Positions 3,287 through 23,356 of a stretch of DNA of 45,862 nt are shown here, piece after piece. The first letter of the stretch is position 1. Every line of letters begins with the position of its first letter. Below the pieces are notes generated by a model, which saw nothing but the letters and a program-made list of their open reading frames with translations, was not told the DNA's origin and ran no database searches. Both the position numbers and the translations under genes were made by a program. The stretch comes from an uncultured Candidatus Saccharibacteria bacterium (GTDB lineage: Bacteria > Patescibacteriota > Dojkabacteria > SC72 > JAFGCJ01): contig CAZDUZ010000003.1 in assembly GCA_964508755.1 (NCBI GenBank), positions 1 to 45,862 of the forward strand, in the 5' to 3' direction.

Positions 3287-5143
3287 TTAATACCTGACGA
3301 TATCGGTCGGATCAAGAATTCCTCTAATTCTTTTTATACCCTTCTTCATCATCGTTGAAAAGATATCTGACTCTTTGATATCCATGACCTCACTAACTCC
3401 GATATAAGTTGCAATACCAGCTCCACCTACTAATAGAAAGAGTGAGATAATGGATATCACCGTGCTTGTGTCGATTTTAAAATTCCATAACTTATACAAA
3501 GAGTACATGATTGTAGTCATAACCCATACAGCAAAAAGTTTTTTGAGAGTAGGCTTCCAGAACCTTCTCCATGACAGAATTTTAATTCTCTTGTTTAAAA
3601 TAATGAGCAGAATGACAGCCTCGACAAGAAGCGCAATACCAGCACTAAGAGCTAAGCCACCCACGGCTGCAGGAGATGAATTTCGGGTAGTAAACCAGGT
3701 AATTGTTTCAGTCCAAAGCTCCCCGGAAAGCGCCGTGGTCCCATTCGCAATAGAAAAAATGAGAGGTCTCCAGTCATAGTAGTGACTAAAAAAGTTGGTA
3801 AATAAAATTGATCCGGCAATATTCACCCCAAGACTTATAAATGAAACTGCAACAGGAATCACTGTATCGTGCATCGCATAAAACGCCCTCACAACGAGAG
3901 CTAGTACAGAATGCATGAGGATAGCAATACCAAAGAGCGCAAGCACCCATGCGGTCATTACTGTATCTTCCCAGTCAAATGCACCCGCTCCAAGAACTAA
4001 ACGAACAATGGGAAGACGTAACACAACAAAGAACACTACCGCGGGCAGAACATAAAAAAGGATCTGCTGAAGTGAACGGGTAAATGTCTTTGCAAACTGC
4101 TCTAAGTCTCTCGATTGTCTATCATTTTCATCATTGAGAAGCGATAACTTTGATGATGCATTGTATTCCAACGACAAGGTTGGAAGAGCTGCCTGAGCAA
4201 TGGTGGTTCCCAGAAGCTGCACCGGCATAAGGTATAAGCTGCTCGCATATCTAAAAGCACTCAGGGCTCCGCTCCCAAGTCCAATACTAATAATGGTATT
4301 TACCAAAATACTAATCTGCTCCCCAATCAAACCAATAACACGGGGAAGCGCAAGACGTACAACACGCAATACGTCTGCATTGATAAAACTTCCCGTAAAG
4401 ATCAACTCAAGCTGTAATTTCTTTAGGAGCGGAATCTGAACGATTAAATGAAGAACCGATCCCAAAATTACTCCATACGCCAAACCTTCTACCCCCCACC
4501 CGAACAGTCCCGAAAAAAGAATGGCACCAATAATTATTCCGATGTTGTATAACAGCGGCGCAAGAGCTGGAAGGAAAAAACGCTTGTTAACCTGCAGACC
4601 CGCAGTAAGTATACTGCTCATCCCAAGAAGAATTGGCGAAAGAAGCATCATACGCATGAGACGAGCCATCAAATCCACATCCATTTGCGTAAATTCTCCA
4701 CCCTCAAAACCGAGCTCCCCTAACCCACCGCTCGAAACAAACTGCGCAGCTTGGGGTGCAAAGATAAAAGCTACAACACATAAAAGTACCATTACAACAA
4801 AGAATAATCGGAGGATGTCAGAAAACAGTTTCTTCAGAGTACCTTTTTCAAGGGCTTCCGCAAACGAAGGAATAAGCGCAGCGTTTACCGTACCTAAGAC
4901 GATAACATTGAAGATTATGTCAGGAACAGTAAAAGCCGCCCAAAATACATCAAGATCCTTCGACGCGCCAAATATGCGGGCAAATGCGTGTATCTTTGCA
5001 AAACCAACTATTTTGGTAAGGGCTACGAGCACCATCATGATAAAGGCAGCCGAAAGAATACCCTCCTGTCGGCCACCTATCAAGTTCTTCCCTTTTTCAA
5101 TACCTTTTTTCAGAACACTTACCAATCTTGAACACGTGATCAA
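3287..5143 (-). CDS. murJ: lipid II flippase MurJ/MviN family, with extended C-terminus
   Basis: 618 aa polytopic membrane protein. N-terminal block TKIVGFAKIHAFARIFGASKDLDVFWAAFTVPD matches the MurJ signature (SRxLGfxR...fG...DAfxxAfxxPn). TTG start. From memory it is roughly 90-100 aa longer than typical MurJ, with extra C-terminal hydrophobic segments. Confidence 0.85.
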   Translation of the reverse strand: MITCSRLVSVLKKGIEKGKNLIGGRQEGILSAAFIMMVLVALTKIVGFAKIHAFARIFGASKDLDVFWAAFTVPDIIFNVIVLGTVNAALIPSFAEALEKGTLKKLFSDILRLFFVVMVLLCVVAFIFAPQAAQFVSSGGLGELGFEGGEFTQMDVDLMARLMRMMLLSPILLGMSSILTAGLQVNKRFFLPALAPLLYNIGIIIGAILFSGLFGWGVEGLAYGVILGSVLHLIVQIPLLKKLQLELIFTGSFINADVLRVVRLALPRVIGLIGEQISILVNTIISIGLGSGALSAFRYASSLYLMPVQLLGTTIAQAALPTLSLEYNASSKLSLLNDENDRQSRDLEQFAKTFTRSLQQILFYVLPAVVFFVVLRLPIVRLVLGAGAFDWEDTVMTAWVLALFGIAILMHSVLALVVRAFYAMHDTVIPVAVSFISLGVNIAGSILFTNFFSHYYDWRPLIFSIANGTTALSGELWTETITWFTTRNSSPAAVGGLALSAGIALLVEAVILLIILNKRIKILSWRRFWKPTLKKLFAVWVMTTIMYSLYKLWNFKIDTSTVISIISLFLLVGGAGIATYIGVSEVMDIKESDIFSTMMKKGIKRIRGILDPTDIVRY

Positions 5144-5374
5144 ATGAAGCCGGATGTATCCGGAATAATGCAGAAATTCTGCTTAGCGACGCAATAGTAC
5201 CAAATTTTAACGTTTATTTCACGTTTTCAAAGGATACTTACGATGTACGAGAAGATATCCGGTACACCTCTCGAATGTAATCCACGCTCATATTAGTACA
5301 CATGAGGATCTTTTCCCAGAGTGGTGATGAAAATGTAGTTCAAATGTATCTTAGGTGTTTCTTAGGAGTCCGCC

Positions 5375-6175
5375 TTGAATCTGAAAACGGTCTTTTCGAT
5401 CCTACTCTCTTTCATGTACCCTCAGACTTGTATTTTTTGCGAAAAATACGGAAAAAGAGTGTGTCGTGACTGCATGAAAACACTATTAGCAAAAGCTCCT
5501 TCTGAGTGCATGGTATGCAGGAAACCTACCAATTGCTTTTCTACCCATGAAAAATGCAGACTTAATAATCCTATTCGTCAAGGCATTATCTGCTGGCAGT
5601 ACGATAAAAACGCAAAGCGAATGGTGAGAGAAATGAAAACAAGCCTAAATACCTCATTTATGCCATTGTTGGTAACCATGGCATTATTTATAAATTCTGA
5701 AATAATTCATCTTCTTACCGGAGGTAATTGTACACATATTATCCCCATTCCTACTTCGTCGGCACATCTGCGAAAAAGAGGATTCAATCAAGCGAATTTA
5801 ATTGCTCAAGAATTAGGAACAAGGTATAACGTACCTGTTACTAATATTATCCACAAAAGAAAAGAAGCCCAAAACCAGACAGGAAATAATAGAAAAAAGC
5901 GACTTACCCTATCACAAGATTCATTTTATTTATCACATACAGTTGCATTGCCTGAAATTACTAGCACGTTAGTTCTCATAGACGATATATGCACCACAGG
6001 AGCCACATTGAGAGCGTGCGCAACATTGCTTATGAATCACGGATTCAATGATATTCGAGCAATTACACTATTTCGGGGAAAATCGGTTAAGGGAAGACGG
6101 AATCCCACTAAAGATTGTATGAAAGAGATAATCATACGGGAAAAACGAAAATGGAAAGTAGAGAAATCAAAATAA
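5375..6175 (+). CDS. comF: ComF family protein (phosphoribosyltransferase domain)
   Basis: 266 aa. N-terminal Cys-rich zinc-finger-like segment (CIFCEKYGKRVCRDCM...CMVC) and C-terminal PRPP-binding motif LVLIDDICTTGATL. TTG start in the ORF track. Confidence 0.8.
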   Translation: MNLKTVFSILLSFMYPQTCIFCEKYGKRVCRDCMKTLLAKAPSECMVCRKPTNCFSTHEKCRLNNPIRQGIICWQYDKNAKRMVREMKTSLNTSFMPLLVTMALFINSEIIHLLTGGNCTHIIPIPTSSAHLRKRGFNQANLIAQELGTRYNVPVTNIIHKRKEAQNQTGNNRKKRLTLSQDSFYLSHTVALPEITSTLVLIDDICTTGATLRACATLLMNHGFNDIRAITLFRGKSVKGRRNPTKDCMKEIIIREKRKWKVEKSK

Positions 6176-6424
6176 TTAACTGCCACATCCGCAGCAACCC
6201 GAACAGTTTCCTCCGCAACTACCGCCTGAATCAGTGCTTGAAGATGAGGTATCAGAGCTTTCTTCAGAAGCGTTAGGAGATCCCGCTATTCGAGGAACTT
6301 CATACACTCTCGTCATTTCACAGCCACAATCATCGCATAAAGCCGTAAATTCGTCATATTCCTTTACTGACATTTCAAATTCTTTACTGCCTCCGCAGTC
6401 AGAGCATAAAAATTGGTATTTCAT
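6176..6424 (-). CDS. FmdB-family zinc-ribbon protein (CxxC_CxxC_SSSS type)
   Basis: MKYQFLCSDCG...CDDCGC zinc ribbon followed by a Ser-rich linker and a Cys/Gly tail (GGSCGGNCSGCCGCGS). ATG 6424 fits the family N-terminus better than the track start at 6445. Its stop codon abuts the comF stop (TAATTA). Confidence 0.75.
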   Translation of the reverse strand: MKYQFLCSDCGGSKEFEMSVKEYDEFTALCDDCGCEMTRVYEVPRIAGSPNASEESSDTSSSSTDSGGSCGGNCSGCCGCGS

Positions 6425-6467: not shown

Positions 6468-7343
6468 TCAAGCGGAAAGAAATGAGGATTGAATATTGGT
6501 TGGTTTAAAAGGAATTACTGAAAGGGGAAGGTGTAACTTCTTTGATAATGTTTGAGCAAGGTGATGAAGCTTATTCGCACGAGGAGACTGACAAGAATAC
6601 TGATTACCATAGGTATGGTTATATCTTTCAGCAAGACCGGGAAAAAGTTGCTGAAGTTTATGGTAGTAATATGAACGCTGACGGTCACGAAGAGTCATCC
6701 CTGTACTAAAAAGAACAAATTGGGCTCCGTGCTCTTTTGCTTTAATGAAAATATCCTCGACAGCTTGATCGCTATCCTCCAAGAACGGAAGCATTGGCAT
6801 GACTGTGATACCTGTGTATATTCCCTTTTGAGCAAAGGCACGCATAGTCTTCAAACGTGCTGATGGACGGGGAGCACCAGGTTCAATTTTCGATGCAAGA
6901 GCATCATCAGTAGTAGTAATCGTAAAATTGACACAGGCATATATTGAGGAAATCTGCTTAATTACTTCTAGATCATCTACTACTCGATCGCTTTTTGTCA
7001 GTAAGTGTAGAGGAAAATGGAAATCGGCAATGAATTTAAGCGCCTGACGGGTTAGATGGTATTTCTGCTCAGCGGGAGTATATGGATCACTCATAGCACC
7101 GGTTCCAATAGTCCCTACCCTCTTTTTTGAGTAAAGCTCCTTCCGAAGAACTTCAATTGCGTTTGTTTTCACAAGCACATCTGCAAAATTCTCAATACGA
7201 TAACACTCGCTTCGTGAATCACAGTAGATGCATTGATGTTCACATCCACGGTAAAGATTCATAGTATACAGGGTTCCGAACCAAGGATCAGGATTACCTT
7301 TACCACCGGAAAGAATTGTTTTGGCATTGGTTTCGATGTACAT
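6468..7343 (-). CDS. radical SAM protein (SplB/DNA-photolyase-like, COG1533-type)
   Basis: 291 aa. CxxxCxxC cluster motif CEHQCIYCDS near the N-terminus, with the length and layout of the stand-alone Rv2578c/SplB-like radical SAM group. Confidence 0.75.
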   Translation of the reverse strand: MYIETNAKTILSGGKGNPDPWFGTLYTMNLYRGCEHQCIYCDSRSECYRIENFADVLVKTNAIEVLRKELYSKKRVGTIGTGAMSDPYTPAEQKYHLTRQALKFIADFHFPLHLLTKSDRVVDDLEVIKQISSIYACVNFTITTTDDALASKIEPGAPRPSARLKTMRAFAQKGIYTGITVMPMLPFLEDSDQAVEDIFIKAKEHGAQFVLFSTGMTLRDRQRSYYYHKLQQLFPGLAERYNHTYGNQYSCQSPRANKLHHLAQTLSKKLHLPLSVIPFKPTNIQSSFLSA

Positions 7344-7355
7344 ACCTGTGCAATT

Positions 7356-8540
7356 CTATTCCATATTAATACCTGGATAGATAAGAGATACAATCTTTCG
7401 ACGAGACACAAGATCCAATGAAGCCTTCAGTTTCTCTCGATGCTGTTTATCACTCGGAAGAAAGTTTATCTCACCGACAGTAAACATTGCACCGAATTCT
7501 TTTGCTATTTTCTGCATTTCATCTACCTGCTGCTCGAACGTTAAAGGACTAGGTATGATTTTTCCCCTTTGTACTTCAGCAGAACCATGTTCTGGAACTT
7601 CTCGATAAGGATGAAAGCTAATTCTATCCACTAATTGAACAGAAACACCGTCTTGTTCCTGCAACCGCTTGACCTCGGTGAGAACTGAACGAATATACGT
7701 AGGATCATACAACGCAGTTCCTGCAATGGAAAGCTTAAGCAAAGGATGTGCCGTTTTTAGTTGTTTAGCAACCTTGTAATAGAAAGCAGCATACTCCAAT
7801 GGGTCTGACTTGGTAGCATGTTGTACTAAACCCTCAAATCGAGGAGCCGAATTTCTGGTAATATTTGTTTCATTTCCAAGTTCCAAATGTACGGTACTTC
7901 CTGTTAATTCTGCAACTTTCATACAAAGTCCGACATAACGATTCACTTGTTCATCTGTTTCTGGTACATCTGAACATTGCTGTAAATCAAGACGATGATC
8001 GTAAAATGGAACTACAAGGGTTATATCTGTACAATGTTCCCTTAGAAGTTCTAATTGTCTTATAAAGGAGGACGTAATACACACATCATATCCCCCAGCA
8101 ACGCCTTCTTTAATCGCATGAGCTGGAGATACTGGGGAAAATTCGCCTGCAGGATTAATTCGCACATGCTGCAAATTAGCACCAAAGGAAGAAATATACG
8201 AATTGAACTTTACAAGTTTTTCTTTTTCAGATTCCTTCCGACGATCGATTTCATCTTGAAAAACTCCTGATGCTATTGCGGAGTGAAGTTCATCAGATAG
8301 TTTACCATCCCGCTGAATGAGAAAGGTACAGAGTTCAATAAAAGAATAATCCATTCTCCCATCAACAATGAAGAATTGATCAAGGTTTAAACCGACATAC
8401 TCTGGGTCAGAAAGTACCAGTTCTCGTTCTTCTTCTACTAAACGTTCCCTATCTATGGCAGTAACATGCTCTAGAGTCTTGGTAGGATCTACTTCTGATT
8501 GAGGTAACTCAGTTTCCGAATTTTTCTTTGAACTGTCCAT
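7356..8540 (-). CDS. hypothetical protein with glycoside-hydrolase clan A (TIM barrel)-like catalytic motifs
   Basis: 394 aa, no signal peptide. Ordered motifs ELGNETN (Asn-Glu acid/base), SFHPY (His-x-Tyr) and FTVGEINF (Glu nucleophile) resemble GH5/GH39-type strands 4, 6 and 7. The coding call is solid; the function call is weak. Confidence 0.45.
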   Translation of the reverse strand: MDSSKKNSETELPQSEVDPTKTLEHVTAIDRERLVEEERELVLSDPEYVGLNLDQFFIVDGRMDYSFIELCTFLIQRDGKLSDELHSAIASGVFQDEIDRRKESEKEKLVKFNSYISSFGANLQHVRINPAGEFSPVSPAHAIKEGVAGGYDVCITSSFIRQLELLREHCTDITLVVPFYDHRLDLQQCSDVPETDEQVNRYVGLCMKVAELTGSTVHLELGNETNITRNSAPRFEGLVQHATKSDPLEYAAFYYKVAKQLKTAHPLLKLSIAGTALYDPTYIRSVLTEVKRLQEQDGVSVQLVDRISFHPYREVPEHGSAEVQRGKIIPSPLTFEQQVDEMQKIAKEFGAMFTVGEINFLPSDKQHREKLKASLDLVSRRKIVSLIYPGINME

Positions 8541-8636
8541 CGTTCAATGATAATCGATTGGTACGTAAAATTAAAATTGCCAAAGATATTGGTTCATATT
8601 TGCCTATCAATCGACTGCCCCCAATGATTTCTACAA

Positions 8637-9221
8637 CTACAGTGTTTTCTCCCCTGATTTGTATTCCATATACATATTTGGAATTTCTTTACCATTTGAA
8701 AGAATATCAGGTTTATAAGGATCGCTACATTCTACAAAACCGTGTTTTTTATAGAATGAAATCGCTGGGTAATTGTACTGTATCACACTGAGAGTCAGTC
8801 TTTTTTCAGGATGCCACGCTACTATTCTTTTCATCATCTCTGATCCGATACCCTTACCTCTGTATGGTTTCAAAATATACATCATTCCAAGGCGGACCGT
8901 TGTATCGTTTTCATGTGCAAGTGAAAAACCCACAATTTCTCCTTTGACGTCATAGACCAGAAGCCCGAAACTTCTGCGGAGCAAATCAAGTCTTCCTTCA
9001 CGCCAATGAGTTAGTATCTCTTCATCAGAACTATTACTAGCATTTTGATCATCCAGTATATCCTGTACCGTTATTCCGTTCTCCGGAGACACAAAATCAG
9101 TTACCCAAACAATATCTGATATTTCTAATACTCTTTTTACCGTTTCATCATATGTTAATTCATCAGAAAAGTTCCATGGTTCAATTCGGTAAGTCAGTTT
9201 TTCTGATTCCCCTGCGTTCAT
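8637..9221 (-). CDS. GNAT family N-acetyltransferase
   Basis: 194 aa. Motif A MMYILKPYRGKGIGSEMMKRIV (R-x-x-G-x-G) and C-terminal AISFYKKHGF. Confidence 0.8.
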   Translation of the reverse strand: MNAGESEKLTYRIEPWNFSDELTYDETVKRVLEISDIVWVTDFVSPENGITVQDILDDQNASNSSDEEILTHWREGRLDLLRRSFGLLVYDVKGEIVGFSLAHENDTTVRLGMMYILKPYRGKGIGSEMMKRIVAWHPEKRLTLSVIQYNYPAISFYKKHGFVECSDPYKPDILSNGKEIPNMYMEYKSGEKTL

Positions 9222-9771: not shown

Positions 9772-11628
9772 ATGGCAAAGAAAAGTTCCAACTCATCCTC
9801 TGACTCTAACGAGATGGATAAAAGTTTCAAAACAATTGTGAAGAATGCCACATGGGCTTATAAAACGATGTTCCGTTTTTCAAAGCGGGATACTCTATTT
9901 TACATACTCTCATCCATCCTAGTTTCTGTAGTCCCAATTATCTCTGCGTACCTAGTCGCTCGACTGTTGGATGAGATTATTACTCTTGCTGCCTCAGATA
10001 TTTCCTCGGTATTTACTCTTGAGATCACGTCTCCATTTTTCTTAACCCTCATGGGAGTTGCTTTTACATCATTTCTGAATCAAGTCATGATACAGCTAAA
10101 GCAATATATGTCTGAACGATTTGACCACTATCACCTGGAGCTATTCGAAGTTGAAATGCTATCTAAGATATCGACACTGGATATTATTCAATTTGAAGAT
10201 CCCGAGACATCAAACAATATTCGTAAAGCTCGAGACAACACCTACAAGTTATTTTACTTTGTAAGTAATTCTTCTCAGGTATTGGTAGATACAGTAACTT
10301 TAGTCGTATCAGGAGTAATAGCCTTTACAGCCTCACCATTAATTACAATCACGGTTGTAGTGCTTTCAATTCCAAACAGCCTTGTTTTCGCACGATTCAT
10401 TAGAGTTATTTGGAACTATTACAACAGCAGAGTTGAAAAAAATAGAATATTCTGGTGGATAATATGGGCACTGTCTGAAGAACGAGCAATGCCCGAACAC
10501 AAAGTGACAGCTTCAAACAAATATATTTCTCAGTTCAGTTATAATCTTAGAAAAGAATTACAAGACGAAGATATTCACTATCGTACAGATCGATTTACGG
10601 GATCAATATTCACAGCGCTTATTAGTTCAACTCTCTACATACTAACCCCGTTAACACTTATTTCGAAGATACTTGCAGGATCAATGACGATTGGTCAGTT
10701 TACCTTTGTGCAAGGAAGATTTTTTGAGTTTTCCAGCACACTAAACAACATGTTGGGAAGAGTGCTTGAGATGTTTGACGCAGGTTCATACCTTACCTAT
10801 CTTCGTAGAATCTATGAAATGGAACCAGCAATAATTTGCGGTTCTGAACAAATATCTACAAATCAAGCCCCCACGATTGAATTTCGTAACGTTTCATTCA
10901 AGTATCCCAAAGCGAAGAAATACGCTCTTAAAAACGTAAATTTTTCCATACAACCAGGTGAAGACATTGCTATTGTTGGAGAAAATGGAGCTGGGAAAAC
11001 CACCCTTATCAAGTTAATTTTGCGATTCTATGAACCTACTGAAGGCGAAATCCTCATTAATGGAAAGCCAATCGAATCTTTCAACATTGACCAGTATCAT
11101 GAACTTTTCGGTGCCCTATTCCAGGAGTTTAATATTTACGAACCGTTCTCCGTTAAGGAAAATATCATGATTGGTGATTATCAAGCAAAAGAAGACACTA
11201 AGCGAATTAAGGATGCAGCAATACAAGCGGATGCGCATGAATTCATAGAAAAATTGGAATATAAGTATGACACCAAACTTGCCAAACAGTTCAGTGGAGG
11301 TACCAATCTCTCTACAGGACAGACACAAAAAGTGGCACTCGCACGTATGTTTTATCGAAATAGACCAATCCTTATTCTTGATGAACCTACAGCCTCAATA
11401 GATGCAGAAGCAGAATACCGTATATTCAAACGCATCTACGAATTTACGAATAATAAAACAGTAATAATTATCTCCCACCGGTTTTCAACCGTACGGAATG
11501 CGAAGAAGATATTCGTCCTTCATCAAGGAGAAATTGTCGAAAAGGGATCTCATGAGGAATTGATGAAAAAGAATGGTAAATACGCAAAAGCGTTTAACCT
11601 GCAAGCTAAAGGATATCAGGGGAATTAA
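9772..11628 (+). CDS. ABC transporter, fused permease/ATP-binding (type I exporter, MsbA-like)
   Basis: 618 aa. N-terminal half has multiple TM helices. The C-terminal NBD has Walker A GENGAGKTT, signature variant LSTGQTQK, Walker B ILILDEPT and H-loop IIISHR. No C39 peptidase domain. Confidence 0.9.
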   Translation: MAKKSSNSSSDSNEMDKSFKTIVKNATWAYKTMFRFSKRDTLFYILSSILVSVVPIISAYLVARLLDEIITLAASDISSVFTLEITSPFFLTLMGVAFTSFLNQVMIQLKQYMSERFDHYHLELFEVEMLSKISTLDIIQFEDPETSNNIRKARDNTYKLFYFVSNSSQVLVDTVTLVVSGVIAFTASPLITITVVVLSIPNSLVFARFIRVIWNYYNSRVEKNRIFWWIIWALSEERAMPEHKVTASNKYISQFSYNLRKELQDEDIHYRTDRFTGSIFTALISSTLYILTPLTLISKILAGSMTIGQFTFVQGRFFEFSSTLNNMLGRVLEMFDAGSYLTYLRRIYEMEPAIICGSEQISTNQAPTIEFRNVSFKYPKAKKYALKNVNFSIQPGEDIAIVGENGAGKTTLIKLILRFYEPTEGEILINGKPIESFNIDQYHELFGALFQEFNIYEPFSVKENIMIGDYQAKEDTKRIKDAAIQADAHEFIEKLEYKYDTKLAKQFSGGTNLSTGQTQKVALARMFYRNRPILILDEPTASIDAEAEYRIFKRIYEFTNNKTVIIISHRFSTVRNAKKIFVLHQGEIVEKGSHEELMKKNGKYAKAFNLQAKGYQGN

Positions 11629-14500: not shown

Positions 14501-17500
14501 TTAACGAGTAACGGTAATGGTAGAAAGAACTGAATTTCCTCCGATATCCCCAAACTCCAAGAAGTATGCTTGTGCACTACCGGCGGAGAATTCCCCACCA
14601 TACGCTGCAACCACAGGATACTCAAAGACATATGTCTTACCACCCTCAACGGCATACTGAGTAAAAGTGACTCTATCAAGAGCAACGCTACCATATCGGT
14701 TAACCATATCCCGCTGTCCCCACTTCCACCAACGGCTGTAGAAGTCGTAATTGAAAGCTCCTAATTCGTAACGAATCGGTTCAAAGCCGGATGGGATAAC
14801 ATCTGTCACCACTAAATTCGATCCATCCCTGTCAGGAGTAACTTCTGTCCTTACCATAACAACATCACCTTTACTTACGCTCGTTAACTGTCGTTTAGTA
14901 TTGAAATCAATAACATGCCTCTTCACAGAAAATTCATTATCTTGAGATAACGTTTCGCTAGTAGAAGTTAACGTTGCAACGGCATATATCACTCCACCCC
15001 CCTCCAACTCTAGTTTCACCACGTTTTCACCGACCTTAAGGTATGACGAATTCACGACAAGACGAGTTGTTTCAGCAGAACCTTTTTCACCAGCGATTTC
15101 AACGTTTTTTACAAGATCACCATTAACAATTACACTGACGATTCCACTATCCTGTCGCTCATCAAGTCCGTCAAGACTTGCTTTTCCTAACGCCTGAAGA
15201 ACCGTTACTTTTTCATATGAATTGCTGCAACCAGATAGTCCTTCAGATACCAGCCAATTAATGGTTTTCTTATAAAGATCGTTCTCTGAAAACGGATACA
15301 GTGCATCCGCAACAATTGCCGTTACATATGATGTACTAAAACCTGAGGAAACAGTAGAGTTCGAATCATTCCAGCTGGCTCCTCTTTGAGATATTTGAGC
15401 TCGCTCAAACAATAGCGGGATTAATTCTCCGGCATCCCCAATACTTCCGAATTCTTCAAGAGTACGCATAAGATTTGCAATCATAATCGAAGAGAGTTCC
15501 TCATCCGAACCTATCTCAAGTAGTCTCTTTTTCATGACAAGCATTGTAGGGATAGAATTCCTACTATCAAGCAATGCCAACACATACATTGAGTAAACAC
15601 GTTGTTCAAGACTCAGGTCCTCTCGGACCATTCCCTCAAGCAACACCTGTTCAATTGCATCTATTCTATCTACGTTTACTTCAATTCCTGATTTTTTTGC
15701 TTCTGCTACTGCGTTGGCAGCGTAGATAGTCGCGTCATAATTAATCACATCATAATCAAACCATCCAAATCCACCGGTCTCCGATTGATTTTCAAAGAGG
15801 AGTTCAAGAAAGTTCTTAACCCTACTCTCGATCTCAAGCTCAGACAGTGACGGAGAGATTTCATCGTAATGTTTATAGAGGAAGGCGTTCTGGATAATCG
15901 CTCCTGAAAGATCGTAGGTTGATTTCACCGTAGGATCATAAGGGAATAGATCATCTTCTGACATGAAACCGCGCGAAAGCGTTACAACAAGATTACTTCT
16001 GTTCACTGATGCGCCACGCTCAACGCTGAATTCCATACCCTGCTCCTTTGCGCTTTCGTTCAATAGTACCGACTGTGAGGTACTTACCTCAAAACCATTG
16101 TTCAATACAGGGATATCAACTTCTAATGCATCCATTACTGTTCCGCCGACAATTAAAGCAGAGTCTAACGAAATTAATGTGCTCTCTCCTGATGGTGTTA
16201 TTGAAAGTGCGATCTCACCTCGTGAATCTTTGGTTTGGCGCACCGCGACATTGTACTGAGGTACCTCACACCCTTCACAGTTTACTGAGACAGTTCCTGA
16301 AAGGTCAGATGTAGAGTAATTTGCGATACCAATCTCAAGAACAAAGGTATCGCCGCTTCGAATAAATGCTGGTGGTTTTGTTTCTATTCGAACATCTTTA
16401 CTAACAATAAAATCAAGCATGCCCTTTCCGGCTTTCGTTTCTTCAGATATTGCATGTGCTCGTACCGTCCAGGTGGTAAGGTTATCTGGCAGTTTGAAAG
16501 AAACTGTTGCTTTTCCATCCTTATCGGTTTGTACCTTTCCGTTCCAGTAGGCGGTGTCTCGAAAATCCGTACGCGGTGCATTTTCACCACCCCCACCACC
16601 TCCACCGGAATTTCCCGAATACTCATAATCAAACGGAAAACCCATCTGATAGACTCGCTGCCTTACAATTGTATAAAAGGAATCATAGATATTCTTTTGA
16701 AGTGTTACATCTCCAGAATTCTTTTCATATATATCGATGAGTGCTTTATCAACTACCGACACAGCAACTTCAGCCTTAACTCCCTTACCGGAACTATCCG
16801 TGATATCAAAATACAGATTTGCATCTTCGCCTGGTTCAAATGAGGGTTTACTGGTGCGTACATTCACTTGTAGCCGACCTCTGTCTTCCTGAACAGTAAG
16901 CGGAATACAATTGCTTCGAAGGATGTTTGAGAGGTAAACATTTTGAGTTGTTATTCCATTTCCGGTCATTGATTGGTATTCATCGACCCCCCAGACACAG
17001 ACCTCGATATATGGTGACATTCCGGAACCGATCTCCTGCTGAATCTCAACAAAACCGGAGGTTAAATCAAGCATACGCCAGCTCATTACTTCGCCTCGGC
17101 GTACCAGATACACCCCATTTCCATCGAGGGTGGTTTTTACTGCAATGGTCGCTGTTTCTCCGGGTACATACGACTCTTTATCAGTATAGATCTTCAATTT
17201 ATCACTCGCATTGTTCCAGTCACTATAGACATACTCATCATCGGACGGAGGAGTGTAAACATAAAATACATATGCAAAACGTCTCATATACTGACTTGTA
17301 CCATGATAGAAATCAGCAGTGACCGTATACGAGCCATGTTTAAGATCGCTCATGGTAATCTCCGCCATACCCTGTGCATCAGTAGTAAGCTCTTTATCAT
17401 AGAGTACATCTGAATGTACCGTAGATGCACTATAAATCGGCTTATTAGCCTTCGTAACGGGATCATAATACGTCTGTCCACTTTCCTCCCATTCCGTCCA

Positions 17501-20044
17501 CGACCGTCTTACGCTGTATTTAACCCTCACTCCACCCTCTGGTTCGAGATCCCAGATCCGAGCGGTCTTAAATTGAATTTTATTTCCATCATCTTCCTGG
17601 ACCGATGTTTCTGATGCCTTCACAAATAATCCGTGAGTCGATTCCGCAACAGTTACTCTTTTCGAATCTAATTCCGTGTAATTTTCTTGAGACCATAAAG
17701 TTATTCGATACGTAACGAAACCGTTTTGGTAAGCATACAAGGAAAGAGGTATTTCTATCTCAGTATGTCCTTGCGGATCGAGCGTTACAATTTCATGTAA
17801 CACGGTATTCGTTGATCCCCACGGTAAACCCTGTAAGTCCTCAGAAGATTCAGCCCACGAGACCTCTGTGTTATGTATATTGTAAATCTGTACAACTGAA
17901 AGACCGACACTTTGCTCTGATGCCGGATCTCCTGAATAGTCTTTCCCGGTAATAGTAACTTTTAACTTTTCTCCAGCAAATGCTCGTGTTTTATCAACTG
18001 ATAGATTGTAAGAATACAAAGGCTTTTCATATTCAGAAACTACAATAGTACTGCCTCCCACAGATTTCCCATCAACATACACTGAAAGATTGTGCGTTCC
18101 CGTCGGAATATTTCCAGGTAACGAAATACTTCCCGATACAGTGCCAAAATCTTTTGAAACTTCGAATGTTTCCTCATAATACGGAAGCTGAGCAAGACCA
18201 TACCACCAGTATGATTTATCCCCAAGTCGTACCGTCACTACTCTTTTTTCTGGAATTGAATAGTTCATATCAATTTCTTTTCTAAGGATCGCGTTAAAAT
18301 TCAACGTATCTCCCGCTTTGTATAAAGGCCTATCCGTTAAAACGAATGCACGGTGGGTTAGATCCGTCCCATCATCAAAAACTTCACTTGAATACCATTC
18401 ATGCTTAATCTTTGAACCGCCAACGACATAGTTGCCTGCATAGGAAATAATTGCGAAATCAACATCTGAGCTGTTCATTCTGAAATATCCATTACTGTCA
18501 GTCTTACCAGAACCAATGGCCTGAGAAGTGCCTTTAAGGTCATAGTAAACCACATCCGCACCACCAACAGGCTTCTTCGTGTTCATATCAAACACCCACG
18601 TTTGAGCTGCACTTATGGACTCTGAGTACACCGCACCTAAGGGTGAAAATACCAGATACTTATAGATAGAACGTCCATAAGAGGAATTGTTTGCCTCTAG
18701 GAGGTATATACCATAACCGTCCAGATCAATTTCGAAAAAGTTTGCCTGCTGGGGAGTCAACGAGAATTCACGCACAGCCTCGCCGAGAGAAGACGGCTTC
18801 TCATTAAGACTCCATCGGTAATTACGCATAGAGGCAAGAAGGTCATCTTTATCAGCCTGATATAAAGTAAACGTAATTGGACCCGTCAGTTCATAGGACC
18901 GTATACCAATCCACGGCTCACGAGTGGTTGATATTATCGGAGAACTATCAGACCAGCTCATTGATGGATGAGGGAGGTACTTCTCATCACTTGTTTGATA
19001 CCCCACTTTGAAGCGAGAAGTAGCACCTGAGGAAATACCTTCACCTTTACTATTATTAAAACCTTCTCTAACGGTTACCTTGTATTCTGTTCCCGGAACA
19101 AGATTTGAGGAAGGAAGAAATATAATCTTTTTGTTATATTGCTCAAAACGCCCAGCAATAGCAGGTTCAACGGTAAAGTAATCCTGAAAGGTCACAATAT
19201 CAATATCTTTATGAGTAAATTCTACTTCTATCGAGGTATCGACAGGAGCAGTTGTCGAACCATCGCGTGGTGTAATTCCGGTAACCGCAAATACGGGTTC
19301 CGTCCAAAATACCCAGGCATAGTCCCTCGGCAACGAACTTCCATCATTAAACATCGTGCCTTTGCGAAGTGTGACCGTGTACTCGGTGTCAGGCTTCAAT
19401 TCTTCCAAGGGCTTTACTATCAGTGACTTTAAGTCGCTTGAAACCTCTATATCGGCTGGTACATCGGGAGATATAGATACTTTATTTACAAGACCGAGAG
19501 AGCGAAACGCCTCCCCACTCGCAACTGTAATAGTAAATATACCTTCCTCCGTAGCAACTCCATATTCACTTTCTGATGACTTAGCAAGAGAAATTACAGG
19601 GGTAGACTGTTCAGACATATTCCTCAAAATGGGTATATCAGTACCTCGAAAATACACAAGCCCAAAGGCGGTTGCTCCAAAAAGAACAATCATTAAGGTC
19701 ATCGATCCCGCCCCCATCGCTAACCACTGGCTTCGTGATCTACCTTTCAGGAATGCAAAGATCGATGAAAGTTTAAAACCAGAACGGTTTCTTTCTTTCT
19801 CAGAAATATTCCTCAGTCCCTCCGCTGTCGAGTGCGATCCTTGCGAATCTAGTCTTTGCGCCAATTTATAATCAATACGGGAAAGAAGCAGGTCACGATC
19901 AATATTGCTTTGCGTATGTTTTCTTGCTTTTTTAATACTTCGAAATAAGGATTTCACACGCATTTCAGCATGTTTGAACCCTTTCTCCCGAAGAAGGCCT
20001 TTTTGCAAGTTTTTATTAGAATGTTCTCTTTCAGTTCCTTTCAT
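14501..20044 (-). CDS. alpha-2-macroglobulin family protein, membrane-anchored, apparently thioester-less
   Basis: 1847 aa. Basic cytoplasmic N-terminus (aa 1-106), one TM helix (about aa 107-132) and Ig-like (SbsA/Big_5-type) repeats. Gly7 bait-like linker, then RTDFRDTAYWNGKVQTDKDGKATVSFKLPDNLTTWTVRAHA (A2M hallmark). Alpha-helical TED-like region (QSETGGFGWFD). No CxEQ thioester motif where expected (FPYDPTVKSTYDLSG). Confidence 0.85.
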   Translation of the reverse strand: MKGTEREHSNKNLQKGLLREKGFKHAEMRVKSLFRSIKKARKHTQSNIDRDLLLSRIDYKLAQRLDSQGSHSTAEGLRNISEKERNRSGFKLSSIFAFLKGRSRSQWLAMGAGSMTLMIVLFGATAFGLVYFRGTDIPILRNMSEQSTPVISLAKSSESEYGVATEEGIFTITVASGEAFRSLGLVNKVSISPDVPADIEVSSDLKSLIVKPLEELKPDTEYTVTLRKGTMFNDGSSLPRDYAWVFWTEPVFAVTGITPRDGSTTAPVDTSIEVEFTHKDIDIVTFQDYFTVEPAIAGRFEQYNKKIIFLPSSNLVPGTEYKVTVREGFNNSKGEGISSGATSRFKVGYQTSDEKYLPHPSMSWSDSSPIISTTREPWIGIRSYELTGPITFTLYQADKDDLLASMRNYRWSLNEKPSSLGEAVREFSLTPQQANFFEIDLDGYGIYLLEANNSSYGRSIYKYLVFSPLGAVYSESISAAQTWVFDMNTKKPVGGADVVYYDLKGTSQAIGSGKTDSNGYFRMNSSDVDFAIISYAGNYVVGGSKIKHEWYSSEVFDDGTDLTHRAFVLTDRPLYKAGDTLNFNAILRKEIDMNYSIPEKRVVTVRLGDKSYWWYGLAQLPYYEETFEVSKDFGTVSGSISLPGNIPTGTHNLSVYVDGKSVGGSTIVVSEYEKPLYSYNLSVDKTRAFAGEKLKVTITGKDYSGDPASEQSVGLSVVQIYNIHNTEVSWAESSEDLQGLPWGSTNTVLHEIVTLDPQGHTEIEIPLSLYAYQNGFVTYRITLWSQENYTELDSKRVTVAESTHGLFVKASETSVQEDDGNKIQFKTARIWDLEPEGGVRVKYSVRRSWTEWEESGQTYYDPVTKANKPIYSASTVHSDVLYDKELTTDAQGMAEITMSDLKHGSYTVTADFYHGTSQYMRRFAYVFYVYTPPSDDEYVYSDWNNASDKLKIYTDKESYVPGETATIAVKTTLDGNGVYLVRRGEVMSWRMLDLTSGFVEIQQEIGSGMSPYIEVCVWGVDEYQSMTGNGITTQNVYLSNILRSNCIPLTVQEDRGRLQVNVRTSKPSFEPGEDANLYFDITDSSGKGVKAEVAVSVVDKALIDIYEKNSGDVTLQKNIYDSFYTIVRQRVYQMGFPFDYEYSGNSGGGGGGGENAPRTDFRDTAYWNGKVQTDKDGKATVSFKLPDNLTTWTVRAHAISEETKAGKGMLDFIVSKDVRIETKPPAFIRSGDTFVLEIGIANYSTSDLSGTVSVNCEGCEVPQYNVAVRQTKDSRGEIALSITPSGESTLISLDSALIVGGTVMDALEVDIPVLNNGFEVSTSQSVLLNESAKEQGMEFSVERGASVNRSNLVVTLSRGFMSEDDLFPYDPTVKSTYDLSGAIIQNAFLYKHYDEISPSLSELEIESRVKNFLELLFENQSETGGFGWFDYDVINYDATIYAANAVAEAKKSGIEVNVDRIDAIEQVLLEGMVREDLSLEQRVYSMYVLALLDSRNSIPTMLVMKKRLLEIGSDEELSSIMIANLMRTLEEFGSIGDAGELIPLLFERAQISQRGASWNDSNSTVSSGFSTSYVTAIVADALYPFSENDLYKKTINWLVSEGLSGCSNSYEKVTVLQALGKASLDGLDERQDSGIVSVIVNGDLVKNVEIAGEKGSAETTRLVVNSSYLKVGENVVKLELEGGGVIYAVATLTSTSETLSQDNEFSVKRHVIDFNTKRQLTSVSKGDVVMVRTEVTPDRDGSNLVVTDVIPSGFEPIRYELGAFNYDFYSRWWKWGQRDMVNRYGSVALDRVTFTQYAVEGGKTYVFEYPVVAAYGGEFSAGSAQAYFLEFGDIGGNSVLSTITVTR

Positions 20045-21309: not shown

Positions 21310-21338
21310 GTGACATATAACCTTTGAATTCATATAAT
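21310..21338 (+). promoter_or_regulatory. sigma70-type promoter of the 21370-23356 operon
   Basis: GTGACA (21310..21315)-N17-TATAAT (21333..21338), 32 nt upstream of ATG 21370. Confidence 0.55.
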
Positions 21339-21369
21339 CTCATGGAGAAATACTTAAGTTCACTTCCTC

Positions 21370-21822
21370 ATGTATATGGTTTTTATTCCCTCAAGAAAAG
21401 AAGATTTTGAGTATATTTCTCCTCTGCGAGAACAAACAATGCATGAATTGAACGAACTTGTAGGATATCAAAAATACAAAATTAATGAAGAGAAATTTAA
21501 AACTCGATTCTATGATTACTTAACCAATCCCCATTTACCTTACAAGTACTTCACACTTGCTACAGATACAGGAGAATTTGCAGGATTTGTAAATCTTCTG
21601 TTTACAAAAAACCTTGGTGAAATACTGCTCGCTCGTTTACGAAGCGAGTATGAAACAGAGGAAAATATGAACATCATGCTTATACAAAGCATAAACTTAT
21701 TCAAATCTGCAGGTATCCCTAAAGTTCTAACCGAAATACCTTTTACAGAAAATCTCTTTAAGAAATGCTTTCAACAGTTACAAGGGAAAATTGCCATTTA
21801 CATAGCAACTCTAGACTTATAA
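21370..21822 (+). CDS. hypothetical protein (possibly a degenerate GNAT-like fold)
   Basis: 150 aa. First gene of a tightly packed three-gene unit, with a 3-nt gap to the next ORF. The hydrophobic/charged pattern FAGFVNLLF...ILLARL is vaguely acetyltransferase-like, but the R/QxxGxG motif is absent. Confidence 0.45.
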   Translation: MYMVFIPSRKEDFEYISPLREQTMHELNELVGYQKYKINEEKFKTRFYDYLTNPHLPYKYFTLATDTGEFAGFVNLLFTKNLGEILLARLRSEYETEENMNIMLIQSINLFKSAGIPKVLTEIPFTENLFKKCFQQLQGKIAIYIATLDL

Positions 21823-21825
21823 TAC

Positions 21826-22023
21826 ATGTTGGCATACAATAGTCACAAGTTAATTTTTGTTGTTGCTTTGATGGCAGACATGATTAATTCGTTAAGTCCT
21901 GAAGGTCTCAACGCTATTGGTTGGCAAGAGTTTGTAGCAGGTTTGCAAACGATCGAACAGCTTACCGGAGAGTCAGGAATTAGTACAGGTACGACCACCT
22001 GCTGTGCAACAGGAACGTGCTAA
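21826..22023 (+). CDS. candidate RiPP (lanthipeptide-like) precursor peptide
   Basis: 65 aa from ATG 21826, or 50 aa from ATG 21871 (MADMINSLSPEG...). The leader-like part ends in QLTGESG. The C-terminal 14 residues ISTGTTTCCATGTC are 9/14 Ser/Thr/Cys. Its 3' end overlaps the next gene by 20 nt. Confidence 0.5.
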   Translation: MLAYNSHKLIFVVALMADMINSLSPEGLNAIGWQEFVAGLQTIEQLTGESGISTGTTTCCATGTC

Positions 22024-23356
22024 GAATCAGATTACCAACGACTTACTCATAAGCCCTTTAGCAGGGTACTTAAGTAACCTCCTACCTTCAACTTCTCTTT
22101 CAGCAGCATCAGTCCTTTCTGATTTTCTACTCCCTACTCTCGTTTACGAGTATTATCTCCAAAAGCAAAGAAGGTTCTCAACGTACATTACAACTCTTGA
22201 TTTTCACAAGTATTTCAATAAGTACCCAGGACTATCGTCACTTCTTAACTGTGCAATGAGTACCATTGCCGATGATGAAAAAGAACTCGATCTTTCATCT
22301 GGTGCAAAAATCATTGGAGATCTACACGAAGGAGGAATGACCAAGTACCTTGAAGGAATACATATAAAATATAGTAAAATAGTGCATTATGAGAGCTATA
22401 TCCGTGAAATCCTCGATCTTTTCAACAATTCTATATTAAGTAACTGTTTTCCATCGTTTCACGACAATGTAACATCAATTTCAAGGAAGTATATAGCAAC
22501 ACAAAATGAAACTGATAATCCTGAGGAAATCCAACGGTACTATTATAACCTAGGCTATACAATCCCCGTTGTAATGTTGTTTCGTGCAATAGATCTTTTT
22601 GCTCAAAATATGACCATCCACCTTCCATACCCGATCTATTTTGATTTTGAATGTCTATTTTCTTCATATACAGTAAGCAACCAAGATTACTACATACAAC
22701 ATTCCGGACTTCTCAGGCTATCTGAGCAATTTGATATAAGTGCAATTACTGGTGGAACCACTCCACTGTATACCTATCTATCACCTTACCTATCAGGTAC
22801 TGAACAAAAGCCTGTAATTAAATGGAAAGTTCCCTTATCAGAAAAATTTTCAAACATTCCTTTGTTAAACGGGGTACAGGTAAAACCTCGACGTTATATG
22901 CAGACTCTTATAAAAGGATACGATGAATCAGCAAAAAAAATCTTTTCAATTCCAAAAGATAAGCTTATCAACATTACACAGAATAATCCGCCAACGGTGA
23001 GAATCGTACTCAGGACAACTAAACAATATAAGGCCTTATTACAAGAATACTGTTTTCCTAATGTTTATACTGTAAATAACGATGCTGCTCAGTTCTTTAG
23101 AGATAGATTATCCAATTCCAAATTAATCTATAATATCCAAAACGCTGATAAACTTTTGGATTACGAAGCATACGTTCTGTCCAAAGGCCTCATACCCAAA
23201 TTTTACTCCAATATTACTTGCAACAAGATCTTCGGATCACCAGGAAAACAAGTCGCTGAGTTTCCAGAACCTCAGATTAGTATATGGAAAAAACATCTGC
23301 TTCACTTCCATGAATTCTTGGATGGACAGCGGAAAATTTTAATCCGGTCACTGTAA
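22004..23356 (+). CDS. LanM N-terminal dehydratase-like (DUF4135-type) protein, stand-alone, no LanC cyclase domain
   Basis: 450 aa, GTG start. Ordered blocks are IGDLHEGGMT (aa 104-113; LanM has GDxHxxGxxV), EIQRYYYNLGY...AIDLFAQNMTIH-LPYPIYFDFECLF (aa 175-219; LanM has fYxrxG...tDlHxENliaxgxxPvxiDlEtlf) and HSGLLRL..FDISAITGG (LanM has tGlLp...dxSglgg). Spacing between blocks is LanM-like. The YKPR lysine and the DxH histidine are not conserved (VHYES, DLF). Confidence 0.55.
   Translation: MQQERAKNQITNDLLISPLAGYLSNLLPSTSLSAASVLSDFLLPTLVYEYYLQKQRRFSTYITTLDFHKYFNKYPGLSSLLNCAMSTIADDEKELDLSSGAKIIGDLHEGGMTKYLEGIHIKYSKIVHYESYIREILDLFNNSILSNCFPSFHDNVTSISRKYIATQNETDNPEEIQRYYYNLGYTIPVVMLFRAIDLFAQNMTIHLPYPIYFDFECLFSSYTVSNQDYYIQHSGLLRLSEQFDISAITGGTTPLYTYLSPYLSGTEQKPVIKWKVPLSEKFSNIPLLNGVQVKPRRYMQTLIKGYDESAKKIFSIPKDKLINITQNNPPTVRIVLRTTKQYKALLQEYCFPNVYTVNNDAAQFFRDRLSNSKLIYNIQNADKLLDYEAYVLSKGLIPKFYSNITCNKIFGSPGKQVAEFPEPQISIWKKHLLHFHEFLDGQRKILIRSL

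Follow-up and report, generated by a model that had tools for sequence, protein, structure and literature searches.

The closest described relatives of the locus reported here are the class II lanthipeptide synthetases LanM, represented by CylM (PDB 5DZT) and LicM2 (PDB 6ST5), in which a kinase-like dehydratase domain (DUF4135) is fused to a LanC cyclase domain. In CylM, D347, N352 and D364 are essential for phosphorylation and D252, H254, R506 and T512 are the phosphate-elimination residues, while K274A and H349A are the sole active-site mutants with residual dehydration (PMC4550811). Excised LanM dehydratase domains have been reported to be sufficient for dehydration, and the divergent DUF4135 dehydratase LanMbC/CcaM (dehydrazoles, carnazolamide) yields dehydro-amino acids without lanthionine rings (PMC10676384). 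Here we describe a cassette of three genes (21370-23356) on contig CAZDUZ010000003.1 of an uncultured Candidatus Saccharibacteria bacterium assigned by GTDB to the Dojkabacteria, the whole stretch of 45,862 nucleotides being referred to as the window. All features of the cassette lie on the plus strand, and its genes encode a GNAT-fold protein of 150 aa, a short Thr/Cys-rich peptide and a protein of 450 aa. The last is a genuine, very divergent LanM-type dehydratase domain, and the cassette looks like an undescribed family of modified peptides.

The 450-aa protein, a stand-alone LanM-type kinase/dehydratase by Pfam match, fold and relatives, is encoded from a GTG start at 22004..23356. A preliminary description of this DNA had called it LanM-dehydratase-like and had made that identity depend on a significant DUF4135/LanM hit and a matching fold; both were found. 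The protein scored 89.6 bits with PF13575 (DUF4135), a profile whose cutoff is 29 (E=3e-25, profile positions 118-377), and hhalign against the dehydratase domains of 51 full-length LanMs gave a probability of 100 and E=2e-47 over residues 18-448. The LanM profile TIGR03897 reached 87.3 bits, under its cutoff of 304, and covered profile positions 213-489 of 932 alone. By sequence the only solved relatives were CylM (E=5e-12, HMMER) and LicM2, and an AlphaFold2 model of the enzyme with 43 family members as input (predicted local distance difference test (pLDDT) 92.5, predicted template-modelling score (pTM) 0.91) retrieved with Foldseek from the PDB CylM (E=1.9e-15, template-modelling (TM) score 0.68) and LicM2 (E=6e-13), with nothing else below E=0.03. 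The motifs GDLHEGG, YYYNLGY...DLFAQN...FDFECLF and SGLLRL..DISAITGG, which had been read as standing in LanM order, are all present. The enzyme ends at residue 450, within the dehydratase-domain alignment, and the polypeptide has no LANC_like Pfam match. It departs from LanM membership on three counts, having no cyclase domain, a score under the cutoff and two changed catalytic positions. Of the earlier wording 'split or minimal LanM', minimal is apt and split is not, since no cyclase is nearby and the 150-aa protein is not a LanM N-terminus: hhalign of the latter against the LanM N-terminal domain gave a probability of 0.1, by which a split-off N-terminal domain was ruled out. We also ruled out that the three ORFs (open reading frames) are fragments of one LanM gene broken by pseudogenization or a frameshift, as relatives of 420-480 aa are colinear with the enzyme and the upstream ORFs are unlike LanM.

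Relatives of the enzyme were sought by an exhaustive HMMER search of 1.84 billion representatives. This identified 358 relatives, of which the best ~65 clusters are 420-480 aa in length and colinear with the window enzyme (E 7e-79 to 1e-12), full-length LanMs (900-1100 aa) entering the list only from E~1e-17; word-index homology searches returned the query alone and, with the family alignment as input, a single relative. With colinear stand-alone relatives of 420-480 aa, the 450-aa protein is not a truncated or decaying LanM. In every case that could be placed these stand-alone relatives belong to Patescibacteria. A degenerate DNA pattern for the catalytic segment of the enzyme (Y-x16-D-x3-[EQ]N-x7-P-x2-[FY]D-x-E), run over GTDB genomes with each species represented once, gave 35 loci, 15 with family members, and these 15 are all from metagenome-assembled genomes (MAGs) of Patescibacteria (Saccharibacteria, Dojkabacteria, Peribacteria and unclassified). 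Among the 15 is L020 (CP129477.1), a complete Dojkabacteria genome of 1.09 Mb. Only the GNAT-like and DUF4135 genes recur as neighbours in the related loci, the other flanks being unrelated. A more distant stand-alone DUF4135 protein of 466 aa (P0118; L043:889-2430) has no GDxH match, and the ORF upstream of it encodes a different peptide, of 42 aa, ending ...SVDGPSCSEESK; judging from this example, not every short DUF4135 protein is paired with a CCATGTC core. An Anaerococcus MAG (L006:4092-6401) contains a split LanM, with a DUF4135-only ORF (4092..5417) followed by a LanC-like ORF (5526..6401), which could be a frameshift; it served as a positive control for the separate-cyclase search.

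Catalytic residues were counted by column in an alignment of 43 family members. Equivalents of CylM D252, H254, D347, N352, D364 and R506 are found in 43/43, and the T512 position is Thr in 39 and Ser in four. The window enzyme keeps all four elimination residues, as D106 and H108 in the P-loop GDLHEGG (22316..22336) and as R333 and T339 in the segment R333-x5-T339 (VRIVLRTT, 23000..23020). The phosphorylation residues D347, N352 and D364 are kept as D197, N202 and D214 in the catalytic segment DLFAQN...FDFE (22592..22651), and K274 and H349 are replaced by S124 and F199. These two deviating positions are precisely the CylM sites with residual dehydration when changed to Ala. Replacement of the Lys of YKPR and of the His of DxH had been proposed previously and both hold, the Lys site however having been misplaced at VHYES: as HMMER pairs the Y-K-P-K of CylM with Y123-S-K-I of the 450-aa protein, K274 corresponds to S124. 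Across the family Lys is present at the K274 position in 13/43 members and absent in 30/43, and the H349 position is N25/H9/Y4/F2/I2/T1, with His absent in 34/43; the replacements are a family trait and not local decay. A family-specific basic residue, K114 in the window enzyme (22343..22345; K in 39 and R in four of 43), stands where the strand that follows the P-loop begins. By analogy with the WNK kinases, K114 might substitute for the missing canonical Lys.

The precursor peptide ORF (21826..22023) encodes 65 aa from an ATG at 21826, with alternative starts at 21871 (50 aa) and 21880 (47 aa). The peptide ends ...IEQLTGESGISTGTTTCCATGTC, its core ISTGTTTCCATGTC (21979..22020) being preceded by ...IEQLTGESG. 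The peptide was initially described as Thr/Cys-rich in its last 14 residues after QLTGESG, which holds except for the count of Ser/Thr, this being seven (six Thr and one Ser) and not six. A 32-49-aa ORF directly 5′ of or overlapping the enzyme gene is present in 14/15 genome loci, the remaining locus being cut off, and these small ORFs end in the consensus T-T-(T/K)-C-C-A-T-G-T-C(S), as in the example MINELTGLDELKVVENELAKVGLNSETTTCCATGTCS of L011. Alignment of the peptides showed an invariant Cys, Gly and Thr (Cys59, Gly63 and Thr64 in the window) and a leader motif [TIL]-G-[LWYF]-x-[ED]-[LF], which in the window reads I-G-W-Q-E-F (21916..21933). In every member a Ser/Thr stands 3-4 residues ahead of the invariant Cys, and in most a T-G-T-C lies beyond it. 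Leader ends resembling a double glycine (ELELIGG, EIELLGG) occur in some relatives, the window leader ending TGESG. The T-T-x-C-C-A-T-G-T-C-type motif occurs once in the window and is found beside homologous enzymes in ~30 independent loci, a recurrence beyond chance. Codons within the conserved block vary synonymously (GCA/GCT/GCG/GCC, ACA/ACC/ACG/ACT, GGA/GGT/GGC, TGT/TGC), and nonsynonymous over synonymous differences (pN/pS) of the peptide in close pairs are 0.07/0.64 and 0.16/0.64 (about 0.1-0.25). Synonymous changes together with low pN/pS show that selection acts on the peptide and not on a DNA or RNA element. The small ORF is thus conserved, syntenic and under purifying selection in relatives, and its absence there had been named in the preliminary description as grounds for giving up the proposal. 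The same arrangement is seen in Logan contig L036, in which the precursor ORF (8453-8596) was not called as a gene. Such precursor peptides are easily missed in annotation, being uncalled in L036 and annotated by NCBI in L037.

The three ORFs lie where they were originally placed, including the 20-nt overlap, in different frames, of the peptide ORF with the GTG-started enzyme gene. The core's invariant Cys-Ala codons (TGT GCN) supply this GTG (22004-22006). A start of this kind occurs in seven loci (the window, L002, L009, L011, L017, L029 and L031); in the window, L002 and L011 no earlier start, or no other at all, is possible, while in the other seven loci the enzyme begins with an ATG 6-18 nt past the peptide stop. 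The Cys codon that forms the GTG is TGT in 14/15 loci.

The first gene (21370..21822; start 21376 and 148 aa in the database copy) had been taken for a 150-aa orphan. It encodes instead a conserved partner of GNAT fold whose acetyl-CoA loop is degenerate, its homolog lying directly 5′ of the peptide in 12/16 loci, with the rest truncated or containing Ns. Pfam GNAT profiles gave weak matches for 6/12 members and none for the window copy. An AlphaFold2 model of the 150-aa protein (pLDDT 91.2) gave 300 PDB matches at E<=1e-3, all of those listed being GNATs, with a best TM score of 0.76, and the best sequence match of the family profile was RimI (E=4.5e-6). Motif A, the R/Q-x-x-G-x-G/A loop for the acetyl-CoA pyrophosphate, reads ETEENM in the window copy and is lost or deleted in all 12 aligned members from the Candidate Phyla Radiation (CPR), with an 8-residue deletion in Saccharibacteria. 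As the acetyl-CoA-binding loop is lost in the CPR lineage, the 150-aa protein is more probably an adaptor or chaperone than an acetyltransferase.

The absence of a LanC-like domain here or nearby, and of a C39-peptidase transporter in the genomic context, had been remarked upon from the outset and was borne out. Pfam scans of all the larger ORFs of the 45.9-kb window gave no LANC_like and no Peptidase_C39 match, and no C39 peptidase was found in the window or any related locus. A custom hidden Markov model (HMM) of the LanC domain, built from 51 LanM C-termini and scoring 111-321 bits on control LanM loci, detected nothing in either the window or the CPR loci (E>=0.17) and had no match in 40 metagenome loci. 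We therefore rejected a separate cyclase near the cassette within this set of loci. The window does encode an ATP-binding cassette (ABC) exporter of 618 aa (9772..11628), 10 kb upstream of the cassette, with an ABC_tran domain only and no C39 domain.

As an independent test, a metagenome collection was scanned for DNA that could encode the peptide motif (T-T-x-C-C-A-T-G-T-C), with no reference to the enzyme. Among the 40 loci obtained, 15 have a stand-alone DUF4135 ORF beside a motif-bearing small ORF, the other 25 being likely chance matches in high-GC frames or lying on very short contigs. The CPR short form accounts for three of the 15 and a longer form of 426-566 aa for the rest; the canonical Lys and DxH His are retained in most of the latter, though not in L077 or the L046 group. 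Long-form loci with the core motif (CCATGTC / CASGTC) are L038, L039, L041, L046, L054, L067, L072, L077, L082 and L083. Representatives with enzymes of ~500 aa include L038 (166-2189; ...SSSGCCATGTCGYWP), L041 (548-3267), in which the motif ...ETSKCCATGTCENV... lies in the middle of an 85-aa peptide with a C-terminal extension, and L039 (7773-12143), in which ...GKDCASGTCDHG... is likewise mid-peptide with a C-terminal extension; L039 is part of a 4.84-Mb chromosome with enterobacterial-type neighbours. A locus of this kind had been thought notable in itself should the host belong to a reduced-genome lineage. The system itself is not confined to the CPR, with long forms found elsewhere. Outside the CPR the partner GNATs score above Pfam cutoffs and have an intact motif A (RGQGLG, RGKGVG, RNRGIG), and ABC exporters lacking C39 often adjoin the long-form cassettes. 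The order of the genes also varies, the peptide lying 3′ of the enzyme in L054 and L083 and the GNAT gene lying between peptide and enzyme in L072 and L067. As the long-form loci have an intact GNAT and ABC exporters, the window cassette looks like a reduced version of a broader, undescribed peptide/DUF4135/GNAT system, the direction of this change being one that we infer from comparison of the loci.

Certain long-form loci contain further genes next to the DUF4135 gene. In L039 and L041 the long-form DUF4135 gene is overlapped at its end by the next gene, for a protein of 287 aa (L039:9505-10368) or 279 aa (L041:2428-3267); these proteins match nothing in Pfam or NCBIfam and show no similarity to each other or to the GNAT-like family. 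For the latter reason they were rejected as GNAT equivalents, and they are possible alternative partners. In L067 (573-4823) the genes after that for DUF4135 encode an ABC exporter and an 871-aa protein of the penicillin-amidase family (N-terminal nucleophile (Ntn) hydrolase), which could conceivably be a leader or tail protease.

On balance we consider it fairly probable that the locus is a self-contained RiPP (peptide made by the ribosome and modified after translation) cassette of three genes, in which the DUF4135 protein would carry out phosphorylation and elimination at core Thr/Ser, with thioethers forming independently of LanC. It is from sequence and predicted structure that we infer the substrate relationship, the dehydration, the ring formation and the role of the GNAT-like protein. 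As with lanthipeptide precursors, a leader and a Ser/Thr/Cys core are encoded beside the modifying enzyme. The precursor would be recognised by the enzyme, probably through the leader motif, and Thr/Ser within the core T-T-T-C-C-A-T-G-T-C would be phosphorylated at the expense of ATP. The phosphate would then be eliminated in the same active site to give dehydrobutyrine or dehydroalanine, to which neighbouring Cys thiols may add without LanC, either spontaneously or aided by the GNAT-like protein. Plausible rings are Thr(i) to Cys(i+3/4) before the invariant Cys, and T-G-T-C; two small i to i+3/4 rings would fit, given the Ser/Thr 3-4 residues before the Cys and the T-G-T-C after it.

A number of observations weigh against such a pathway. 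The window enzyme lacks the canonical Lys (S124) and the DxH His (F199), and Ala at K274 or H349 of CylM leaves only a small amount of dehydrated product (PMC4550811), so that activity rests on an unproven compensation such as K114. The last Cys is absent in the relative L014 and several relatives have just two Cys, for which reason the ring pattern cannot be fixed. A core conserved to such an extreme across distant lineages is not usual among antimicrobial lanthipeptides, and this may indicate a different chemistry or function. The cassette has neither a leader protease nor a dedicated exporter, and the nearest ABC exporter, that of the window at 9772..11628, shows 28% identity over its full length to the cassette-linked exporter of L083, a generic similarity. 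Finally, the LanC negative covers the window and related loci, and a distant LanC elsewhere in the genome would have escaped it.

Part of this evidence could be taken to mean that the enzyme is a kinase only, with Thr/Ser phosphorylated and the phosphate kept, to give a phosphopeptide or another group-transfer product. The replacement of the canonical Lys and DxH His, together with the absence of the cyclase expected for a lanthipeptide, would suit such an enzyme, and phosphorylation only had been suggested in the preliminary description. The four CylM elimination residues kept in the enzyme argue against it: D252, H254, R506 and T512 are invariant or nearly so in the family, the changed residues belong to the phosphorylation side, and a Cys stands beside Thr in every core, as needed for a thioether but not for a phosphopeptide. 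We regard retention of the phosphate as unlikely. The chemistry could alternatively centre on the GNAT, with acyl or acetyl transfer to the N-terminus or a side chain and with the DUF4135 protein secondary or a scaffold, the CPR version being a degenerating remnant of the fuller system of other phyla. The GNAT is indeed the most constant partner of stand-alone DUF4135, also outside the CPR where it has motif A and passes Pfam, and by sequence the CPR family is matched best by a RimI-type N-alpha-acetyltransferase. A transferase is however difficult to reconcile with the loss or deletion of motif A in the window copy and all 12 aligned CPR members, as well as with the strict conservation of the DUF4135 catalytic set. 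Moreover Saccharibacteria, Dojkabacteria and Peribacteria have all kept the cassette, and purifying selection acts on its peptide, unlike decay, and we hold this alternative to be quite improbable.

It might further be argued that the small ORF is no substrate at all, being a cis-regulatory or translational-coupling leader, or an artefact of the 5′ region of the enzyme gene such as a frameshifted N-terminus or start-codon context. The position of the enzyme GTG inside the motif Cys-Ala codons in 7 loci, the use of TGT in 14/15 and the fact that gene callers sometimes miss the small ORF would all be expected in that case. Yet the motif is equally conserved in the 7 loci with a peptide stop before an ATG-started enzyme, and is kept where the peptide is 3′ of the enzyme, as in L054 and L083, or where the GNAT gene comes between the two, as in L072 and L067. 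Synonymous changes dominate within the motif, and the enzyme family is colinear from about residue 20, such that the upstream frame is not needed. We attach very little probability to an ORF without a role as substrate.

Returning to the LanC-independent modification that we favour, a bolder form of it would make the cassette a new lanthipeptide-type class, with a minimal DUF4135 dehydratase and with the GNAT-fold protein, repurposed after losing acetyl-CoA binding, acting as cyclase or peptide chaperone on a near-invariant conserved product, as opposed to a variable antibiotic, common to Patescibacteria and other phyla. This is speculative and we think it doubtful; were it true, ultrasmall episymbiotic Patescibacteria would have the product in common with other phyla, where the system takes a fuller form with active GNAT and ABC exporter, and the product could serve as a signal, as a metal- or thiol-active cofactor or in interaction with a host. 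That the core is so nearly invariant across Saccharibacteria, Dojkabacteria, Peribacteria and bacteria unrelated to them suggests in any case a conserved molecular target or function.

The cassette shares with LanM systems the kinase-like dehydratase fold, the P-loop Asp/His, the catalytic Asp, the Asn and Asp metal ligands and the Arg/Thr elimination residues, as well as the Thr/Cys-rich precursor gene adjoining the enzyme and, in some relatives, the double-glycine-like leader ends. It differs in having no fused or nearby LanC, an enzyme shorter by ~160 N-terminal residues, a new invariant basic residue after the P-loop with the Lys/His mostly replaced, a GNAT-fold partner and a core that is nearly invariant across phyla. 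CcaM resembles it in using DUF4135 chemistry outside the classical lanthipeptides. However, CcaM is a protein of ~1015 aa that needs a fused zinc-free class III-type cyclase domain, which the cassette does not have, and it works with YcaO enzymes and independently of a leader, neither of which is a feature of the cassette. Class V lanthipeptides, made by LxmK/LxmX/LxmY, take a LanC-independent route. Split LanB enzymes have also been mentioned (PMC7268733). Both are precedents for dehydration and cyclisation by separate polypeptides and for routes that do without a LanC homologue, but they use LanB-type or Ser/Thr-kinase plus HopA1-lyase enzymes, with no DUF4135 and no GNAT-fold partner. N-acetylating GNAT tailoring enzymes also occur in RiPP pathways, an example being microviridin MdnD. 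The 150-aa protein has its fold in common with the N-acetyltransferases RimI and MdnD, and the non-CPR partners look catalytically intact, whereas the window copy lacks the pyrophosphate loop (ETEENM) and has no Pfam match. In comparison with maturation by a peptidase-containing ABC transporter (PCAT/LanT), the cassette has no C39 ABC transporter, and the window leader ends TGESG and not GG/GA/GS.

No published description of stand-alone DUF4135 or CPR lanthipeptide systems was found within the literature searched. One survey of lanthipeptides was anchored on LanC domains (PMC7268733) and another of DUF4135 was restricted to proteins >=500 aa (PMC10676384); the family would have escaped both, as the LanC anchor and the length limit exclude stand-alone DUF4135 proteins of 420-480 aa. 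If active, the cassette would be the smallest known LanM-type modification system, running thioether or dehydro-peptide chemistry with no LanC cyclase, and would offer a natural experiment in how the catalytic Lys/His of a lipid-kinase-like fold can be relocated. It adds a rare conserved specialised-metabolite locus to the Patescibacteria, whose genomes are otherwise stripped of biosynthesis, and with just three short genes it lends itself directly to heterologous co-expression.

A putative sigma-70-like promoter, GTGACA-N17-TATAAT (21310..21338; score 11/12), lies 60 nt 5′ of the 150-aa gene, at the place and ahead of the three packed ORFs as previously noted, and the three genes are probably transcribed from this one promoter. 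Promoter-grade sites (>=11/12) number 5 in the window against 1.4 expected from first-order Markov simulations, an excess of ~3.5-fold. A promoter-like site is found at -50..-67 before the homologous first gene in six relatives, scoring 11/12 in L031, L020, L011 and L018, 10/12 in L014 and just 9/12 in L016. The GC content of the cassette is 0.36 against 0.41 for the window, and that of the GNAT-like gene 0.32. Rfam, PADLOC and PHROGs gave no matches in the cassette, and a defence-system or phage origin was rejected on the negative PADLOC and PHROGs results. The closest relative of the window is a Dojkabacteria MAG (L017/L037), which shares with it the order of an alpha-2-macroglobulin-like gene, an extracytoplasmic function (ECF) sigma factor, a ferredoxin, the cassette and an exonuclease. 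Flanking proteins of the two are 40-72% identical and the cassette enzymes 35%, with the core TTTCCATGTC-stop identical, and the NCBI annotation of this MAG includes a 49-aa peptide with the same 20-nt overlap. This synteny, with all placed family members being Patescibacteria, makes the host a member of a reduced-genome lineage, as suspected beforehand.

Elsewhere on the minus strand of the window, a run of three genes beside a tRNA-Ser (6468-9221), a possible second modification locus, encodes a radical S-adenosylmethionine (SAM) protein (6468..7343), a 394-aa protein with no Pfam match (7356..8540) and a GNAT of canonical type (8637..9221). Also on the minus strand is the gene for a bacterial alpha-2-macroglobulin-like protein of 1847 aa (14501-20044), unusually large for a reduced genome, which shows 40% identity to the syntenic copy in the Dojkabacteria MAG L017.

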